From positions 106,332,001 through 106,396,000 of the forward strand of contig NC_086107.1 of NCBI RefSeq assembly GCF_963921235.1: DNA of 64,000 nt. Direction: 5' to 3'. Each line of letters begins with the position of its first letter. Within the stretch, counting starts at the first letter, position 1. Positions 3,148 to 49,018 of the stretch are shown in pieces. Both the position numbers and the translations under genes were made by a program. The stretch is from Mobula hypostoma. Lineage: Eukaryota. The notes beneath the pieces are model-generated. The model searched no databases, was not told where the DNA came from, and saw nothing but the letters and a program-made list of their open reading frames with translations.

Positions 3148-3597
3148 CTGGTGGAGGACAGGCCAAAGTGTCCAAGTTTAACAGGAGGAACAAGAGGAGA
3201 GAAGAGAGCTCAGTACAAGTTCCAGAGTATCAGCCCTTTGCTACGCCAACACGAAGCTGGAGAAACGCGGCAGATTAGGCTGCACCTATGGCAAGAAACG
3301 GACAGCTGACGTTTCGGTTGGACGGATGACGAAACGTCGACTATCCAATTCCCTCCATAGACGCTGCCTGACCTGCGGAGTTCCTGCAGCATCTTGTGTG
3401 TTGCTCCAGATTTAAGCATCCTGTGTCTCTCCTACAACATGGATGTGTCCTGTTCAGATGCATTACGGCTTGGTACAGCAACTGCTCTATCCGTGACCAC
3501 AGGGAACTGCAGAGCTGCGGACACAGCTCAGCGCGTCACAGAGTTCTGCATTCACCTCTCTCACCGCCTCGGTAAAGCAGCCAGTGTAATCCAAGGA

Positions 3598-4262
3598 GCA
3601 CACACAACACGCTGGAGGAACTCAGCAGGCCAGGCAGCATCGATGGAACAGAGTGCACAGCCGACGGTTTGGCCCGAGACTCTGACCTGCGGAGTTCCGC
3701 CAGCATTTTGTGTGCGTTGCTTTGGACTTCCAGCACCTGCAGATTTTCCTGGGGCCAAACATTTCCCGCTGGCCAAACCCATTCCCAATCCAGCGTGCCG
3801 GTCCATGGCCTCCTCCTGTGGCAATGAGGCCACCCTCGGGGTTGAGGAGCAACCTCTTATATTGCGTCTGGGTAGCCTCCAACCTGACAGCACGAATATC
3901 AATTTTTCCTTCTGGTGGGCAAATTTCCCCCCCCACCAACTTCTTCTATTCCCTACTCTAACCCTTTACCTCTTCTCACCTGCCTATCGCCTCCCCGAGT
4001 CCCCTCCTCCTTCCCTTTCCCCTATAGTCCACTCTCCTCTCCTATCAGATTCCTTCTTCTCCAGCCTTTTACCTTTCCCACCCACCTGGCTTCAACCATC
4101 ACCTCCCAACTAGCCTCCTTCCCCTCTCCCAACTTCTCTTTCTGTCCTCTTCCCCCTTCCTTCACAGTCCTGAAGAAGGGTCTTGGCCCAATACGTCGAC
4201 TGTTTATTCATTTCCATAGATGCTGCCTGACCTGTTGAGTTCCTCCAACATTTTGTGTGTGC
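3598..4262 (+). mobile_element. Penelope-like element remnant with an inverted 5' piece, GIY-YIG C-terminus and mutated hammerhead
   Basis: Peptide EATLGVEEQPLILRLGSLQPDSTNINFS, then a pyrimidine-rich tract, then acagtc-CTGAAGA-...-AATA-cgtc-gactgt at 4164-4203. Confidence 0.75.
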
Positions 4263-8430: not shown

Positions 8431-8506
8431 GATAATGCCAGGTGCCTGACTGATGCTATTGTTGAAGGGTCCCGACCTGAAACGGTGACTATTTCCCTCC
8501 AAGGCT

Positions 8507-8735
8507 AAACACGAGGAAATTTGCAGATGCTGGAATTTCAAGCAACACACTTAAAAGTTGCTGGTGAACGCATCAAGCCAGGTAGCATCTCTAGGAAGAG
8601 TTACAGTCAACATTTTGGGCTGAGACCCTTCGTCAGGACTAACTGAAAGAAGAGCTAGTAAGAGCCTGTCCACTGTACCTCTTCCTAAAGATGCTGCCTG
8701 GCCTGCTGCGTTCACCAGCAACTTTGATGTGTGTT
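8507..8735. mobile_element. Short fold-back Penelope-like terminal insertion nested in an older Penelope-like remnant
   Basis: Inverted copies of aacacac..aaagttgctggtgaacgc..ggcagcatct, flanked by the direct repeat cctccaa(g/a)gct. Confidence 0.65.
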
Positions 8736-9504
8736 CCTCCAAAGCTGCTGCCTGACCTACTGAGCTCCCCCAGTGCTGTACATCAATCCTTCTCACTTGC
8801 TCTTTCCCTGCTGCCCTGTCAATGTTTTCTTTTCACACGTTCGTGCAATTCTTTTCTTTCCTCTCTGGCCCTTGACCTTTCCCACCCTCCTGGCTTCACC
8901 TATCATCTTCCAGCTAGCCTCTTTCCCCTCCCCTCACCTTTTTAATTCAGGCATCTTCCCCCTTCCTTCTCAGTCTTGAAGGGTCTCAGCCCAAAACATC
9001 GACTGTTTACTCTTTTCCACAGATGCTGCCTGACCTGCTGAGTTCCTTCAGCAAGTTGTGTGTGTATTGCCCTTTTGAAACACTCTGTTGAATCCATTTC
9101 CTTCTGACCAAAATTTTCCAAACCGTTGAAACTGAATTTCTCGATCTCCCCGCTGGTTCTCCTGTCGTGTTCCTCATATTCCGGAAATTCCAGTCACTAC
9201 AAAAGATTCTTTCTTCCCTTGATCAAAGCCCCAAGTAAGATGGAGTAGAATTCTGTGCTTCCAACTACATTGTCCCAGTCCCCAACTCTCCATTATTCCA
9301 GCTGTCTCCCAAACCTCGCATACATGGATTTGTTCTCAATAGTCCTGGCAAACCAAGCAACCAATCACAGAAGCGGCCCATGAGCACATGACGGCTGGCC
9401 AAAGGATGGGTTGCCAGCTCTGATTGGTTGCAAGGATCCATCATGTGATCTCCTGTTGACTCTTGCCAATCTTTACTGAGGCACCACAGAAAGCATTGGG
9501 TCTG

Positions 9505-31460: not shown

Positions 31461-31888
31461 GGTTCAAGATTGCTTAATGTCATTTCCCGTGCACAAGTGT
31501 AAAGGAGAACCAAATAATTGTTACTTTGGAACTAATGCAGCACAAGATAAAAACATAGAAGATAAAGAACACAATAATAATAAGAAAAACACAATAACTA
31601 TATATATAGCAACACACATCAAAGTTGCTTTTAAACTATATATATAGATAGCCCATGCATGTAGATTGATTGTATGTCCAGAAAGTGACGCTAGGCTGTG
31701 TATATGGTGACTGGCAGGAAATAATAAAGTAGTGGTGGAGTTAGTGGGTGGAGGTGTTGATCAGCCTCACTACTTGGGGAAGGTAACTGTTTCTGAGTAT
31801 GGAGGTCCTGGCATGGATGTTACATGCAACACACATCAAAGTTGCTGGTGAACGCAGCAGGCCAGGCAGCATCTCTAGGAAGAGGTAC

Positions 31889-31924
31889 AGTCGACGTTTC
31901 GGGCCGAGAACCTTCGTCAGGACT
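31889..31924 (-). ncRNA. Minimal type I hammerhead ribozyme motif
   Basis: Minus strand AGTC-CTGACGA-A-GGTTCTCGGCCC-GAAA-CG-TC-GACT. Core intact, one mismatch in stem II. Confidence 0.7.
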
Positions 31925-32453
31925 AACTGAAGGAAGAGTGAGTAAGGGATTTGAAAGTTGGAGGGGGAGGGGGAGATCCAAAATGATAGGAGAAGACAGG
32001 AGGGGGAGGGATGGAGCCAAGAGCTGGACAGGTGATTGGCAAAAGGGATATGAGAGGATCATGGGACAGGAGGTCCGGGCAGAAAGAAAAGGGGGATGGG
32101 GGGCAAAACCCAGAGGATGGGCAAGGGGTATAGTCAGAGGGACAGAGGGAGAAAAAGAATGTGTGTATATAAATAAATAACGGATGGGGTATGAGGGGAG
32201 GTGGGGCATTAGCGGAAGTTTGAGAAGTCAATGTTCATGCCATCAGGTTGGAGGCTACCCAGACGGAATATAAGGTGTTGTTCCTCCAATCTGAGTGTGG
32301 CTTCATCTTTACAGTAGAGGAGGCCATGGACAGACATATCAGAATGGGAATGGGACGTAGAATTAAAATATGTGGCCACTGGGAGATCCTGCTTTCTCTG
32401 GCGGACAGAGCGTAGGAAAAATCTCAAATCTCTTACTAGCTCTTCCTTCAGTT

Positions 32454-32489
32454 AGTCCTGACGAAGGGTCTCGGCCTGAAACATCGACT
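32454..32489 (+). ncRNA. Minimal type I hammerhead ribozyme motif
   Basis: AGTC-CTGACGA-A-GGGT(CTCG)GCCT-GAAA-CA-TC-GACT. Confidence 0.65.
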
Positions 32490-33540
32490 GCACCTCTTCC
32501 TAGAGATGCTGCCTGGCCTGCTGCATTCACCAGCAACTTTAATGTGTGTTGCTTGAATTTCCAGCATCTGCAGATTTCCTCGTGGATGGTACATAGCTTC
32601 CTCCCTGATGGGAGTGGGACAAGCAGTCCACGAGCAGGATGAGTGGGATCCTTCACAATGTCGCTGGCCCTTTTCCCGCACCTTTCTGTATATATGCCCT
32701 TGATGGTGTGTAGGCTGGTGCCGGTGATGCATTAGGGCAGGTTTTACTACCTGCTGTAGAACCTTCCTCTCCGCCACTTGTGTAGTTTCCATACCCAGCT
32801 TCTTGGGATGCTTTCTACTGTGCATTTGTAAAATGATGTGAATATGGATGTGTAAAGTCCAGCTCTCTTCATGCTCCTCAGAAAGCAGAGACATTGGTGA
32901 GCTTTCTTGACCGTGTAGGGTGTGCTCTAGGACCATGAGAGCTTGTGTGAGATGTGCACTCCCAGGAGATTGAAACTGTTTGCAGTTTCCCCTGCTGTGC
33001 CGCCGATGTAGAGGAGGGTGCGAGGGGTGCGAGTTCTCCTGAAGCCGACGACCAGCTCCTTTGTCTTGCTGGCTTTAAGAAAGAGGTTATTTGCCTGGCA
33101 CCAGGCCTTGAGCTCTTCCACCTCCCTTCTACAGGCTGTCTCATTGTTGTCGGTGATGTTGTATATCAGCGGTGAACTTTACAGTGTGATTGCTCAGGTG
33201 TTTGGCCGTGCAGTCATGTGTGTGCAGAGTGTACAGCAGTACACAGCCCTGGGGGGGGGGGGTGGAGGGATGATGGGGAGGGCACCATCTACTTCTACCC
33301 CTAGGTCCCTCTGTTCTGCTACACTCCCCGGGGTCCTACCGTCCATTGTGAAAGTCCTACTCTGATTTGCCTTCCCAAAATTCAACATGTGGCACTCATC
33401 AAATTAAACTCCATTTGCCATTCTCTGGCCCACTTACACAGGATAGTTGTGTATTTAATATTTCAGTAATATTTGAGTAAGATTGTAAATATATTGTTTG
33501 AGTAAGCATTCTTTATTTGTTTAAATCGTTAATTACGGGT

Positions 33541-38178: not shown

Positions 38179-38874
38179 TAACACAAAATACTCGGCAGAT
38201 GCTGGGGTCAAAGCAACACGCACAACACGCTGGAGGAACTCAGCAGGTCAGGCAGCATCTGTGGAAACGAACGGTCAACGTTTCGGGCCGAGACCCTTTG
38301 TCAGGACTGTAGGGGGAAGGGGCAGAGGCCCTATAAAGAAGGTGGGGGGAGGGTGGGAAGGAGAAGGCTGGTAGGTTCCAGGTGAGAAACCAGTAAGGGG
38401 AAAGATAAAGGGGTGGGGGAGGGGAAGCAGGGAGGTGATGGGCAGGAAAGGTGAAGAAAGAATAGAGGAAAACACAATGGGTAGTAGAAGGAGGCAGAAC
38501 CATGAGGGAGGTGATAGGCAGCTGGGGGAGGGGGCGGAGTGACATAGGGATAGAGGAAGGGAGGGGAGGGGAATTACCGGAAGTTGGAGAATTCAATGTT
38601 CATACCAAGGGGCTGGAGACTACCCAGACGGTATATGAGGTATTGCTCCTCCAACCTAAGTTTAGCCTCATCATGGCAGTAGAGGAGGCCATGTATGGAC
38701 ATATCCAAATGGGAATGGGAAGCACAGTTGAAGTGGGTGGCAACCGGGAGATCCCGTCTGTTGTGGCGGACGGAGCGGAGGTGCTCGACGAAGCGGTCCC
38801 CCAATCTGGGTCGGGTCTCACCGATGTAGAGGAGGCTGCACCAGGAGCACCAGATGCAATAGATGACCCCAACA
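38179..38874 (-). mobile_element. Penelope-like element 3' end (GIY-YIG domain plus mutated hammerhead)
   Basis: GVIYCIWCSWCSLLYIGETRPRLGDRFVEH...GMNIEFSNFR* and a CTGACAA...GAAA motif at 38271-38310. Confidence 0.88.
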
Positions 38875-41800
38875 AAAGCGGTAATGACAATAAACGCATG
38901 GTTGTATCCATCAGGATGAGTGATGACCTGATAGAGATGTACAAGATGAGAAGAGGCATGGATAAAGAGGTCAGACAGCACCTTTTTCCCAGGGAAGAAA
39001 CTGCTGATACTAGACGGCATAATTTCAAGGTAATTGGAGGAAAGTGTAGGAGGGACGTCAGAGATAGATTTTTCTTTTACACAGAGAGTGGTGGGTGCAT
39101 GGAACATACTCCCAGGGGTGGAGGTAGAGGCAGATACATTAGGGACAGTTAAGATACTCTTAGATAGGCACATAGACGAAAGAAAATTGGAAGGCTATGT
39201 AGGAGGAAAGTGTTAGACTGATCTTCATCTGCCATGTCATATGATGTGGGCGATCATGGTCTTCCACCTCTCTTTATTTGGGGTGGCACAGTGGTTAGCA
39301 CGACCCGGGTTCAATTCCCGCCGCTGCCTGTAAGGAGTTTGTACGTTCTCCACGTGCCCGCGTGGGTTTCCTCCGGGTGCCCCAGTTTCCTCCTACAGTC
39401 CAAAGACGTACTTGTTGGTGAGTTAATTGGTCACTGTAACTTGTCCTGTGATTAAGCCAGGGTTAAATTGGTGGTGGGGGGGTTACCTGTAGGGTTCTTA
39501 CTCTTTTTTTCTATCCATGATCATAATTGTTCTTGGAAATTTTTTCAAAGGAGTGGTTTGCCATCGCCTTCTTCTGGGCAGTGTCTTTACAAAATGAGTG
39601 ACCCCAGCCATTATCAATACTCTTCAGAGATTGTCTGCCTGGCATCAGTGGTCACAAAACCAGGATTTGTGATATGCACCGGCTGCTCTTACGACCTGCT
39701 CCCATGGCTTCACATGATCCTGATCGGGTGGTGGGTGCTAAGAAGGTGCTACACCTTGCCCAAGGGTGACCTCAGGCCAGCAGAGGGAAGGAGAGCCTTA
39801 CACCGCCTTTGGTAGAGAAGTATCTCCACCCTGCTATCCTAAGATTGATCTTAGATTACAGTAACAGGTCAGTACAACATCGTGGGCTGAATGATCTGCA
39901 CTGTGCTGTACTGCTCGATGTTCTGAGTTCATTGTTCAGAGTGCTGAATATAATCAAATCAAATTTAATTATCATTCAACCATACGTGGACACAGCCAAA
40001 CAAAACAGCTTTCCTCTGGGGCCAAGGTGCAAAGCATACACAGCACATTTAAAATAGCGAGCAAAAAAAACATAGTCATGCTAAAAAAAAACACTCATAT
40101 ATAGTCCAAGACCCTGAGTAACATGTCCTGCAAATTGATGGTACATTTCCAGCCTGTCATTCCACCGAATGAACACAAGAGGACAGCACTGAAGGGAGAG
40201 GCCAGCCCCCAACCGAGTGCAGACGCCACGCTACACTGCCTCCTGCATCTCCTCCCTGCACTGCAGATGCAGGCAAGCCCGCGGCTCGAGGCCTAATCCT
40301 CGCTACAACTGAGGCTGCGCATCTCCCATGCCTCCTGTCTTGCGACCAAGCAAGGGAAACAGGCCTGCGGCATTTTACATTACCAATGTCCAACAGGGTC
40401 TTGCGATTGCAAGAGAAACGTCCAAGGCAGTCACCCACAGTTACACTGCATGCCACCTTCGCAGACCAACTCCAATGCCTTCGAGTAGCGGGCAGCAACA
40501 CGGTCTGACCCAGGTTAGCTCCTCCAACCCGCCAGCCGCCTTCTCCTTCTCCGATATACCGGTCGGCTCCTTCAACACCTCTGATCAACAAGTAGTTCAC
40601 TGATACGGTAGACCTACTGCTCCTTAAGTTCTCGGAGTCTAGTATAGTCTTGTGATCATTAAAAAAAACATTTAACAAAGAGAAAAAACACCTTTGGTTG
40701 GCCCCTGAGAGGTCACTGCGTTCAAATGCTCTGCCTTCTTACCAGAAAAAGTTGAGAAGTCATGTAGCAGTTGCATAAAACTTTGGTTAGGTCACAATTT
40801 GGAATATTTTGTGTATTTCCGATCACCGCATAAGATATATTATATTATATATTATGTTGTAGAAGAGAATCACCAGGATGTTACCTAGATTCAAGAGTAT
40901 CAGGTATAAGGAGTCATCATTCCCCTTCATTCACACCTGGACTCTCACATTCCCTGCTAACTTGTGCTCCTCCCCTCTCCCTACCTTTCATTCCAGCCCT
41001 CTTCCTGTCCTGTCCTGTCCTGACGAAGGGTCTCGGTCTGAAACACCGACCATTCATTCTCCTCCACAGATGCTGCCTGAGCTGTTGAGTCCTTCCAGAA
41101 CTTTGTGTGTGTTTCCCTCATTGGCAGATCCTCCTGTGTCTCTGTTGGACTGTTTCTCCTGGAGTCTCGGGGGCTGAGGGATGGCTGATACAAAACACAT
41201 ACTTATGAGGAGCGGTTTTAGGGTTGATAGTCGGAGTCCTTTTCCCCAGGGTAGAAATGTCAAATACTAGGGGCATAAGTTGAGAAGGGGAAAGTGTAAA
41301 GGAGATTTCCGAAGCAAGTTTTTATACAGAGGGTGGTAGTACACTCACTTGGCTGGAGTAAAATGTTCTCCAAAGTCAGGCGTTCTCGAGCTTTCTTATG
41401 CCATGGACCAATACCATTAAGCATGGGGTCTGTGAATCCCTGTCCTAAGTGGTTAACGGAGAATGTTTGTGCGTGACTTTATTGAGCATGTGGAGGCTGA
41501 TACACGGGGGGGCCACCACACCGTCCTTGACAGATCGTGGTCAGGGTCCAGTAGCACGGAGTGCAAGGTGACTGGGGACCCTTCATCGCCGTTGTGATGT
41601 GTTGTCATCTTCCGCCAGCTCCGCCGCTGAGGTCTTGGTTGAATCGATCTTTGTCTGGGACCTCCTTCTTGAGCTTACCGCTATGGGTGACTGTACCAGG
41701 ACCTAAGTTCCAGACAGGATCACCCTTGGGATCGGAGGAACTCACAAGCCTCTTGAGGTGATGATTCTCAGAGAAGACAGAGTGGTACATGCCTAGAACA

Positions 41801-46068: not shown

Positions 46069-46663
46069 CTCCAGATAGGCATTTGGAGGAGCGAGGAGGG
46101 GAAAGAGCAACAGCGACTGGGAGGTGAGGGGCGGAGGCAACACGTGTAGGTCGCCAGGACTGCGAAGCTGGAGTTTTTTGTAGTTGGGGCAATTTAACCT
46201 GGGTGTTCAAAAGCTTGTGGGGTTTATTAAAATGGGGGGGGGGGTAGAACTGCTTCCAAGGGGACAGAGAGATCAGTGAGAGTGGGGAAAGAACGTGAGA
46301 AGGGCGCGGATTTAAATGCAGCATAGAGTTGCAATGTGGAGCATACTGCCAGGAGGCAGGTACGACAGCAGAAACGGTGAACGTGTGTTGGATTGCAACA
46401 TTTAAGAGAAGTGTGGGTAAGTACTTGGCTGGGAGGGGTATGGAGGACTATGGTCCGGGTTTCGATTCGATGGGACCAGTCAGAATTACGGTTCAGCATG
46501 GACTAGATGGGTAGAAGAGCCTGCTTCTGTGCTGTACTGGTCTATGGCAGGAACTTTCACAAAATCACAGAACAGTACAGCACAGGAACAGGCCATTCGG
46601 CCCACAATCTTGTGCTGAACCGGCTAAAAAAACAAATCAAAAACACCCAAACACTAATCCCTC

Positions 46664-47117
46664 CTGATCGTTTCCACGGATGCTGCCCAACCTGCTGAGT
46701 TCCTCCAGCGTGTTGTGAGTGTTGCTTTGACCCCAGCACCTGCAGAGTATTTTGTGTTTACGATTTGCTACTCCGCTGCGGTCTTCGGGGTTTGCCTACC
46801 CTGAAGAAGTTTAAATCTTCCCTTTGACGGGAGTTCAGTGAGACCCTCTCTCACTGCTCCCCCTCTGTGATCTCCGCCTCTCTCCAACTCTCTGACCAGA
46901 TCCCCTTACTTTTCACCTGGAACCTACCAGCCTTCTTCTTTCCACCCTTCCCCCACCTTCTTTATAGGGCCTCTGCCCCTTCCCTCTTCAGTCCTGACGA
47001 AGGGTTCCGGCCTGAAACGTTGACTGATCATTTCCACGGATTCTGCCTGACCTGCTGAGTTCCTCCAGCGTGTTTTGAGTGTTGCTTTGACCCCAGCATC
47101 TGCAGTGTTTTGTGTTT
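46664..47117 (+). mobile_element. Compact non-autonomous Penelope-derived unit with a direct terminal repeat and hammerhead (retrozyme-like)
   Basis: 11-bp TSD actaatccctc (46653-46663 and 47118-47128) and a direct repeat of about 95 bp (46664-46760 and 47024-47118). Confidence 0.8.
46988..47027 (+). ncRNA. Minimal type I hammerhead ribozyme, best-preserved copy; predicted cleavage after 47021
   Basis: TCAGTC-CTGACGA-A-GGGT(TCCG)GCCT-GAAA-CG-TT-GACTGA: 6-bp stem I, intact core, palindromic AACGTT in place of stem III. Confidence 0.75.
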
Positions 47118-47517
47118 ACTAATCCCTCGTACCTACACCATGTCCATATCCCTCCATCTTCCTTACACCCATGTGCCTATCTAAACAACTCTTAAAATAA
47201 AAGCCTCTAATGTCTTTGCCTCTACCACCGTACCAGGCAGCACATTTCAGGCATCCACCACTCTCTGAGTAAAAAAAACTTATCCCTCACATTCCCCTTG
47301 AACCTATCCCCCCTCACCTTCAGTGCATGCCCTCTGGTATAAGACATCTCCACCCTGGGTAATGGATACTCCCTGTCCACTCTATCGATGCCTCTCATAA
47401 TCTTGTAAACCTCTATCAGATCTCCCCTCAGCCTCCGACGCTCCAGAGAAAACAACCCAAGTTTATCCAGCCTCTCGTGATAGCACATGCCCTCTAAACC
47501 AAGCAGCATTCTGGTAA

Positions 47518-48329
47518 CACACATCAAAGTTGCCGGTGAACGCAGCAGGCCAGGCAGCATCTCTAGGAAGGGGTACAGTTGACGTTTTTGGGCTGAGACC
47601 CTTCGTCAGGACTAACTGAAGGAAGAGCTAGTAATAGATTTGAAAGTGGGAGGGGGAGGGGGAGGGGGAGATCCGAAATGATAGGAGAAGACAGGAGGGG
47701 GAGGGATGGAGCCAAGAGCTGGACAGGTGATTGGCAAAAGGGATACGAGAAGATCATGGGACAGGAGGCCTAGGGAGAAAGAAAAGGGGGAGGGGGGGAA
47801 GCCCAGAGGATGGGCAAGGGGTACAGTGAGAGGGACAGAGGGAGAAAAAGGAGAGGGAGAAAAAGAATGTGGGTATATAAATAACGGATGGGGTACGAGG
47901 GGGAGGTGGGGCATTAGCGGAAGTTAGAGAAGTCAATGTTCATACCATCAGGTTGGAGGCTACCCAGATGGACTATAAGGTGTTGTTCCTCCAACCTGAG
48001 TGTGGCTTCATCTTTACAGTAGAGGAGGCCGTGGTCAGACATGTCAGAATGGGAATGGGATGTGGAATTAAAATGCATGGCCACTGGGAGATCCTGCTTT
48101 CTCTGGCGGACAGAGTGTAGGTGTTCAGCGAAATGATCTCCCAGTCTGCGTCGGGTCTTGCTAATATATAAAAGGCCACATCGGGAGCACCGGACGCAGT
48201 ATATCACCCCAGCCGACTCACAGGTGAAGTGTCGCCTCACCTGGAAGGACTGTCTGGGGCCCTGAATGGTGGTAAGGGAGGAAGTGTAAGGGCATGTGTA
48301 GCACTTGTTCCGCTTACAAGGATAAGTGC
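47518..48329 (-). mobile_element. Penelope-like element 3' end with GIY-YIG endonuclease, nested in a CR1
   Basis: FTCESAGVIYCVRCSRCGLLYISKT..EH..HFN..GMNIDFSNFR* and a perfect 14-bp TSD cagcattctggtaa (47504-47517 and 48330-48343). Confidence 0.9.
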
Positions 48330-49018
48330 CAGCATTCTGGTAAACCTCTTCTGCACCCTCTCCAAAGCCTCAACATCCTCCCTGTAGTGAGGCGACCAGA
48401 ATACTCCAGATGGGGCCTAACCTGAGTTAGAGAATTAGTTAAATCCGCTCCCTCCTCACCTTCTTTCCCCACTCACACTGATCTCTCTGTCCCCTTGGAA
48501 ACAGTTTTTTTCCTGCTATTTTAGTAATAGGGGGAATGAAAGGAAACCGTGCGTGTGGCAGTGGGGTGGAGGGAGGCAGGGAAAGCAATGGGAATACGAT
48601 TAAGCAGGTTCAAAGAGCTAGCACAGGCCTGAGTCGAATGACCTCTGCCTGCTCTGTATGGCCGCAGAAGCCCACAACAGTCTGATATTACATCACTCTG
48701 GGTTCATCTGAAGTTCATAAGCAGCTTGAGTGTGGGACTTGTGATTTACCGCGATGTCACACGAACCTCGCTTCACAAAGCTGCATTGTGCGCTCCTGCT
48801 CTCGAAGTGCCTCTCCCTTTGCGATTTGCATATCTCCATGGAGTTACCATGGAATGCCATGTCAGTGCCTGTGTGGCGACTGTCTCTGGAAAACATGAAA
48901 TAGTGACTCAGCACAGGCGAAGTGTAGCACAGTCGAAGCCAGGCTCACTATCGCGTCATTTTAAAGTCATTTCTGCCCACCTCCCCCCACCCCCGCAATC
49001 AAACTCTGTGTCAAAACA

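Follow-up and report, generated by a model that had tools for sequence, protein, structure and literature searches.

EN+ Penelope-like elements (PLEs) are reported with short and tailed ends (PMC8557442, PMC3846280), and introns are known in the PLE 5' UTR (PMC8557442). Penelope copies flanked by a target-site duplication (TSD) and carrying microhomology-mediated internal deletions are described in PMC3846280 as a common inactivation route. The role of the hammerhead in EN+ PLEs is called unclear in PMC8557442; in the assays reported in PMC4209133, the minimal dimer-type hammerhead does not cleave as a monomer in vitro and cleaves little as a dimer. For Poseidon, PMC11167929 reports a hammerhead dispensable in vitro, a ribozyme that required protein, reverse transcription (RT) starts 111-118 nt into the ORF, a cut at +26, and a need for 54-61 nt beyond the RT start in vitro; subtraction of these figures places the RT starts 85-92 nt past the cut.

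Animal non-LTR retrozymes are described as low-GC tandem repeats expressed as linear and circular RNA, with a GC criterion of under 45-50% (PMC7229834). Their unit is around 300 bp, and lengths of 51-972 bp are reported (PMC7229834, 10.64898/2026.07.22.740005). A 2026 preprint derives retrozymes from PLE pLTRs, gives an average of 363 bp in one chondrichthyan, defines active retrozymes by two or more hammerhead-bearing units and reports cleavage in one of nine dimers tested (10.64898/2026.07.22.740005). Retrozymes are also proposed as PLE descendants in PMC5680766.

The insert described here is located at 46664-47117 of a 64-kb window, the whole stretch of 64,000 nucleotides of Mobula hypostoma DNA that was analysed. 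It resembles the EN+ PLEs described in PMC3846280 and PMC8557442 in its direct repeat of the pLTR type, 30-40-nt tail, short TSD, GIY-YIG parent and internal deletion at a microhomology, and its relatives carry the CX2-5CxxC linker reported for the Neptune/Nematis clades (PMC8557442). Unlike those elements, its deletion removes nearly the whole ORF and its 5' pLTR is trimmed to just past the hammerhead site. With the minimal PLE hammerheads of PMC4209133 it shares the core, an extra nucleotide after A9, a palindromic 15.1-16.1 segment, the absence of loop 3 and a helix I of 6 bp, whereas it shows U11.1 in place of the conserved G10.1-C11.1 pair, U17 and no partner motif. Like Poseidon of Anolis, the insert has its 3' end past the cut, at 96 nt versus 85-92 nt (PMC11167929), but it belongs to a different clade, and the ORF, which in Poseidon starts within the hammerhead, here probably starts 130 nt past the cut. 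Non-LTR retrozymes (PMC7229834, 10.64898/2026.07.22.740005) and the insert are both non-coding and PLE-derived, with a type I hammerhead, a unit of around 360 nt and a TSD longer than 4 bp; unlike the retrozymes of those sources, the insert is not tandem, contains one hammerhead, shows a GC content of 53.6% and keeps a probable piece of the ORF start. As in the R2 SIDEs of PMC3414825, the 5' and 3' ends of an autonomous element are joined by internal deletion and the 5' end is ribozyme-related, whereas R2 SIDEs are described as propagating elements with an intact 5' ribozyme and the insert has a PLE parent, has no 5' core and is known from one locus. By analogy, it would work like the seed of an R2 SIDE, had it ever propagated. 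In the best reading the insert is of a kind already described, a microhomology-deleted PLE copy; whether gutted PLE copy or member of a small family, it belongs to a known kind. A literature search, whose scope left Repbase/Dfam entries and preprint supplements outside, found no paper describing this ray element.

Target site and host repeat

The 454-bp insert sits between two identical 11-bp words, ACTAATCCCTC, located at 46653-46663 and 47118-47128 on the plus strand (100% identity between both copies); the TSD would be 9-13 bp if the 2-nt junction overlaps were counted otherwise. It splits a host repeat on the minus strand (46566-47517), the 3' end of a LINE, which shows a colinear uninterrupted homolog at 54460-53991. 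This LINE is putatively CR1-like, judging by the C-terminal peptide of a homologous ORF; Pfam shows no match for the homologous ORF of the host repeat.

Contig evidence comes from four of 24 listed runs, which belong to related organisms and perhaps to species other than M. hypostoma. Part of the stretch is contained in 20 of the 24 runs, with a best share of 0.61; none of the 24 is given as an RNA source, and for six an RNA origin is only a guess. The contigs, which cannot reveal RNA ends, list no position at which many molecules start or stop. The empty site is present in contigs from other copies of the host repeat, joining 46664 to 47130 and skipping 465 nt, which equals the insert plus one TSD. 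This joint is present in all four runs (three, two, two and two contigs). Insertion and TSD are real, since both flanks match the uninterrupted copy at 54460-53991 and the empty-site contigs are found in the four runs. The TSD-bounded insert of the original prediction, made from the letters alone, is therefore confirmed by an identical 11-bp TSD and by the empty site in other copies of the host repeat, and the predicted lack of a long ORF also holds: the longest stop-free stretch contains 76 codons and the longest frame from an ATG contains 35, with no intact RT-endonuclease ORF.

Two other features are located around this site. A 39-bp inverted repeat is found at 46508-46604, where apparently two repeat ends in opposite orientations meet; six sub-threshold Rfam matches to miRNA models fall in this hairpin flanking the insert. 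The other, on the minus strand (47508-48400), is a 5'-truncated copy of a second Penelope-like family. It has a CX4CxxC linker and a frame resembling GIY-YIG, lies directly against this host LINE at 400 bp from the insert, and shows 89% identity to 31828-32416.

Parent family, terminal repeats and hammerhead

The 64-kb window contains 22 stretches related to Penelope-like ends, which belong to at least three families, and four of them match the strict hammerhead core pattern. A 5'-truncated copy of the parent family is located at 38180-38880 on the minus strand (the 38 kb copy) and contains the GIY-YIG end (PF01541, E 7.4e-05), 3' UTR, hammerhead and tail. Its 3' UTR, hammerhead and tail match 46901-47116 of the insert at 89% identity and have the same end point, and the 5' repeat copy of the insert is 93% identical to 38180-38270. 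For the GIY-YIG fragment (38.6-38.9 kb), the five best protein matches come from Hypanus sabinus and M. hypostoma, with 72-87% identity; the fragment shows 87% to a ray RT-GIY-YIG-derived protein. The CX2-5CxxC linker precedes the endonuclease in 10 of the 11 sequences checked, including the window copy at 47.9 kb and the protein P0001. These sequence comparisons support the derivation of the insert from an EN+ PLE, and the Penelope origin originally proposed agrees with the 89-93% identity to the GIY-YIG-bearing 38 kb copy. Judged by the linker motif, the parent appears Neptune-like; the closest copy, at 38 kb, is truncated before the linker. The window also contains three head-to-head inverted pairs of Penelope-like ends (8500-8738, 3588-3746 and 31820-32584). 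Relative to the cut, the plus arm located at 8668 begins at -3 to +1 and the others at +25 and -62.

The direct repeat of the insert (46664-46759 and 47024-47117) shows 87 identities, seven mismatches and one 2-nt gap, with a spacing of 360. The insert is thus 360 + 94 nt long, or 1.26 units, with its 3' end at cut +96. The 5' copy (46664-46759, plus strand) contains the pLTR downstream of the hammerhead cut and the tail; it starts at cut +2 to +4 and is without the ribozyme core. The 3' pLTR stretch and tail (47022-47117, plus strand) end at cut +96, where the 38 kb copy ends as well. Most related pieces of the window end at cut +58 to +72 or at +94 to +101; in the contigs, loose ends are found behind 46726 (+64) in three of the four runs, and there are pieces ending at 46758-46761. 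By their positions in the sequence, these two end classes correspond to the short and tailed ends known for PLEs. The 3' repeat is the ordinary end of any family copy, because the 38 kb copy and window pieces end there too. Each repeat differs from the 38 kb copy by eight substitutions, about as much as from the other repeat; the insert copy is therefore old, and for the same reason the repeats give no sign of a shared template. In the tail (46720-46745 and 47080-47100), a pyrimidine-rich run ending in CAG looks, by eye only, like a 3' splice site.

The predicted hammerhead is a minimal type I motif of the dimer type (46988-47027, plus strand), with a predicted cut after 47021. Helix I contains 6 bp (TCAGTC at 46988-93 and GACTGA at 47022-27), the complete core is formed by CTGACGA (46994-47000) and GAA (47014-16), and the palindromic ACGT at 47017-20 occupies 15.1-16.1 with no loop. 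There is one extra A after A9, and helix II pairs GGGU with GCCU around a 4-nt loop. Position 11.1 is U, in a G10.1-U11.1 pair, and C is found there in 22-89% of the depth across the four runs; position 17 is U. In the minimum-energy fold of the motif, some of the core is base-paired. Rfam shows no hammerhead at E up to 5 and gives seven matches, all below the gathering score; the identification consequently rests on the published minimal descriptor (PMC4209133). Since the 5' repeat begins after the cut, without a core, the insert has one ribozyme motif. The direct terminal repeat of about 95 nt, the monomer of about 360 nt and the hammerhead geometry with a cut after 47021 were as predicted; the term intact, used originally for this hammerhead, is generous for a motif with U11.1 (a G-U pair) and U17.

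Deletion junction and probable ORF start

The predicted internal deletion near 46900 was located at a TCC microhomology (46901-46903, plus strand): the 3' UTR match starts at 46901 and the ORF-side match reaches 46903, so both sides overlap in these letters. Two of the 11 listed pieces over the middle segment match up to 46903 and then diverge for 16 and 41 letters. Downstream, 46901-46987 (plus strand) contains the end of the parent 3' UTR, of which 121 nt up to the cut are kept; in the 38 kb copy the distance between stop and cut is 297 nt. In three of the four runs, loose ends preceding 46910 (14, 14 and nine records) continue as the parent 3' UTR found at 38.4 kb, and the contigs listed beside the junction either go on into parent sequence or diverge from the insert. 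Among the 32 longest pieces (at least 82 nt) of more than 102,000, none spans the deletion junction or either flank junction, and the deletion-junction unit has one copy within the 64-kb window. Summed depth, which is no copy number, is 10-32x lower in the junction bin than in the left bin and 123-413x lower than in the right bin; its ratio to the subfamily-specific 5' UTR bin (46767-46789) is 0.5-1.3. The depth data do not point to an abundant derivative family and are compatible with a small one.

The middle segment, judged from its letters, is probably the parent 5' UTR followed by the first 37 codons of the parent. The probable remainder of the 5' UTR (46760-46791, plus strand, 32 nt) would be placed between the tail and the probable ORF start, and the probable first 37 codons of the RT-endonuclease ORF (46792-46903, plus strand) carry TTG as the initiation triplet, and codon 12 is a stop. 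The fragment 46760-46900 has no match elsewhere within the 64-kb window; 46790-46881 is abundant (multi-copy) in all four runs. Seven of the 11 listed pieces start at 46792-46794, four with 51-203 unlike letters upstream, and cross-family similarity accordingly begins at the TTG at 46792. The in-frame stop at 46825 reads C in 75-84% of the depth, and the two other commonest changes, 46821 and 46842, are both in third codon positions of that frame. The coding pattern of the middle segment lies in frame 3.

At the protein level, a database search with the middle segment gave none of 20 candidates at E 0.01, BLASTP against 17 relatives gave no significant match, N-terminal HMMs gave no significant match (best E 0.021 and 0.21), and in a pairwise test the best score was reached by 148 of 300 shuffles. 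In an ungapped register against 16 PLE N-termini anchored on KTRF, the best position ends the peptide two residues before the motif, and L-P-T-L of the insert faces the M-P-T-L start of P0021; a score as high was obtained with 10 of 1000 shuffles, with 12 of 1000 random translations and also with frame +2 of this segment. Exact-pattern scans found the ORF-start motif in no metagenome or viral contigs and the tail motif in no metagenome or genome contigs, collections in which ray DNA is unexpected.

Origin of the insert and of its 5' end

On balance, the insert is likely to consist of the 5' and 3' ends of a PLE fused at a 3-nt microhomology, a rare and decayed deletion copy of an abundant parent that was inserted by the parent RT/endonuclease. 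The RT-GIY-YIG protein would nick the target. The template would be a linear RNA of more than one unit, on which reverse transcription would start at the usual tailed site of the family, 96 nt past an uncut hammerhead. Copying would reach approximately the upstream hammerhead cut position, and the cDNA would be attached through the 2-nt overlap. Around 2.7 kb between codon 37 and the 3' UTR, as estimated from relatives of 850-900 residues, would be lost at TCC through a template switch while the RNA was copied, or through microhomology-mediated repair at a later time. We infer this scheme by carrying the Poseidon mechanism over to the insert. Insertion by the RT/GIY-YIG machinery of the element had been proposed originally and is in agreement with the TSD and the 3' end of the family.

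The proposal that the RNA template was cut to unit length has to be abandoned. A single pass over a unit-length linear RNA is ruled out, because the insert (360 + 94 nt) passes an uncut hammerhead by 96 nt. The RNA that was copied either was linear and exceeded one unit (full-length or already deleted, with the downstream pLTR uncut), was a circle, or consisted of two jump-joined units. The first option needs nothing new, since TSD-flanked copies deleted at a microhomology are described in PMC3846280. Several observations stand against a deletion copy, among them the following: the depth of the junction bin is about that of the 5' UTR bin, as a modest derivative family would give; the 5' end is at most 4 nt from the cut; the unit of 360 nt is within the range of sizes known for retrozymes; and of four protein tests three did not support the ORF-start assignment, the fourth being matched by another frame.

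The 5' end itself has two explanations of similar weight. The repeat spacing of 360 puts the equivalent cut after 46661, which makes the start of the insert cut +2. In other copies of the host repeat, the TSD is followed by CT (seen in loose ends behind 46665 and in the window copy at 54.4 kb). CT also opens the insert and 46664-46665 may be target; given this overlap of 2 nt, the true start lies anywhere from +2 to +4. The closeness to the cut predicted originally stands, and the exact distance of 2 nt becomes this range. That ribozyme cleavage set the 5' end has about even odds, and cleavage is a fair explanation for this one end. Ordinary 5' truncation owing nothing to cleavage is equally probable; RT pausing in helix I, a match of 2 nt between insert and target, or transcription starting at this place would favour it. 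The insert 5' end lies inside the 3' strand of helix I (cut +0 to +5), and the RNA reads described for Poseidon include none that start or end at the cut site (PMC11167929). In the window, 14 other pieces have 5' ends between -65 and +50, and only two of them fall within -3 to +4 (0.97 expected, P 0.25); this count omits the focal insert and six pieces starting further upstream, one of which is the insert's own junction, and uses BLAST edges, which are imprecise on old copies. Against truncation, the insert reaches the element 5' end and is a different class from the window pieces, with n=1; a stop within 5 nt among at least 130 possible positions would be a chance event of a few percent; and the inverted arm at 8668 likewise starts at -3 to +1. 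Whether cleavage defines the template is a question to put to copies that reach the element 5' end, of which this insert is one, and a ray genome has enough copies for a count, a single locus proving nothing.

Membership of the insert in a retrozyme-like or SIDE-like non-autonomous family is unlikely. In such a family the parent protein would mobilise the 360-nt unit in trans, the unit would be transcribed as a tandem or circular RNA, and RT would start at the tail and copy 1.26 units. The 360 nt of the unit compare with 363 bp reported for chondrichthyan retrozymes (10.64898/2026.07.22.740005), all likely cis signals are kept, the TSD is clean, circles are proposed as more-than-unit templates in PMC4209133, and the junction-bin depth is above zero and equal to that of the 5' UTR bin. 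The unit could be a template, since it keeps the tail and 140 nt downstream of it, above the 54-61 nt of Poseidon. However, the insert has one hammerhead and no tandem, GC is 53.6%, the listed junction-side contigs are of the parent type or unlike the insert, and a fusion of ORF start and 3' UTR at a microhomology is the product of ordinary decay as described in PMC3846280. A stop at the cut site is not explained by a circle alone, since circles lack ends. The circular fold of the unit has z -2.5 to -2.6 with 53% of bases paired; z -2.5 or lower was also reached by two of 16 random windows and by none of four parent-type 3' ends, and the fold was set aside as weak evidence for a retrozyme. Of the features that mark non-LTR retrozymes, the insert has the unit size and lacks the tandem arrangement (one hammerhead, 1.26 units) and the low GC. 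Reads across GTT/GAC, the check originally suggested for circles, cannot tell a circle from a linear RNA, since this sequence is already contiguous in the DNA at 47021/47022.

The weakest explanation, a highly improbable one, is that unit-length linear RNAs cut by the hammerhead at both ends were joined by an RT template jump, in which RT starts at +96, runs to the cut 5' end, jumps to the 3' end of a unit and copies it whole: the geometry fits the exact prediction of 360 + 96 nt with the 5' end at the cut, internal initiation is demonstrated for Poseidon (PMC11167929) and template jumps are reported for R2, but a donor with two hammerheads around a deleted unit is needed and none was seen here, the 47021/47022 joint is flush with no bases added or lost, minimal hammerheads cleave poorly in vitro (PMC4209133), and cleavage is reported as unnecessary for Poseidon insertion (PMC11167929).

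The full form of the proposal, a Neptune-derived non-autonomous ray family with a hammerhead-released 360-nt unit, circular or template-jumped, inserted in trans and with 5' ends at the cut, is quite improbable. If true, it would be the origin of a retrozyme by internal deletion caught in the act, and the fossil would prove that the transposition template is cleaved in vivo by minimal PLE hammerheads. If the junction recurs as a family, the route from PLE to retrozyme would be internal deletion and not pLTR amplification, which would refine the model given in the 2026 preprint (10.64898/2026.07.22.740005).

Penelope-like endonuclease sequence is also contained in three Hypanus proteins, P0001, P0002 and P0016, named as kinase-domain, mucin-2 and ABHD14A isoforms, and P0001 contains RT sequence besides. 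In these proteins it is probably annotation read-through into repeats or exonisation.
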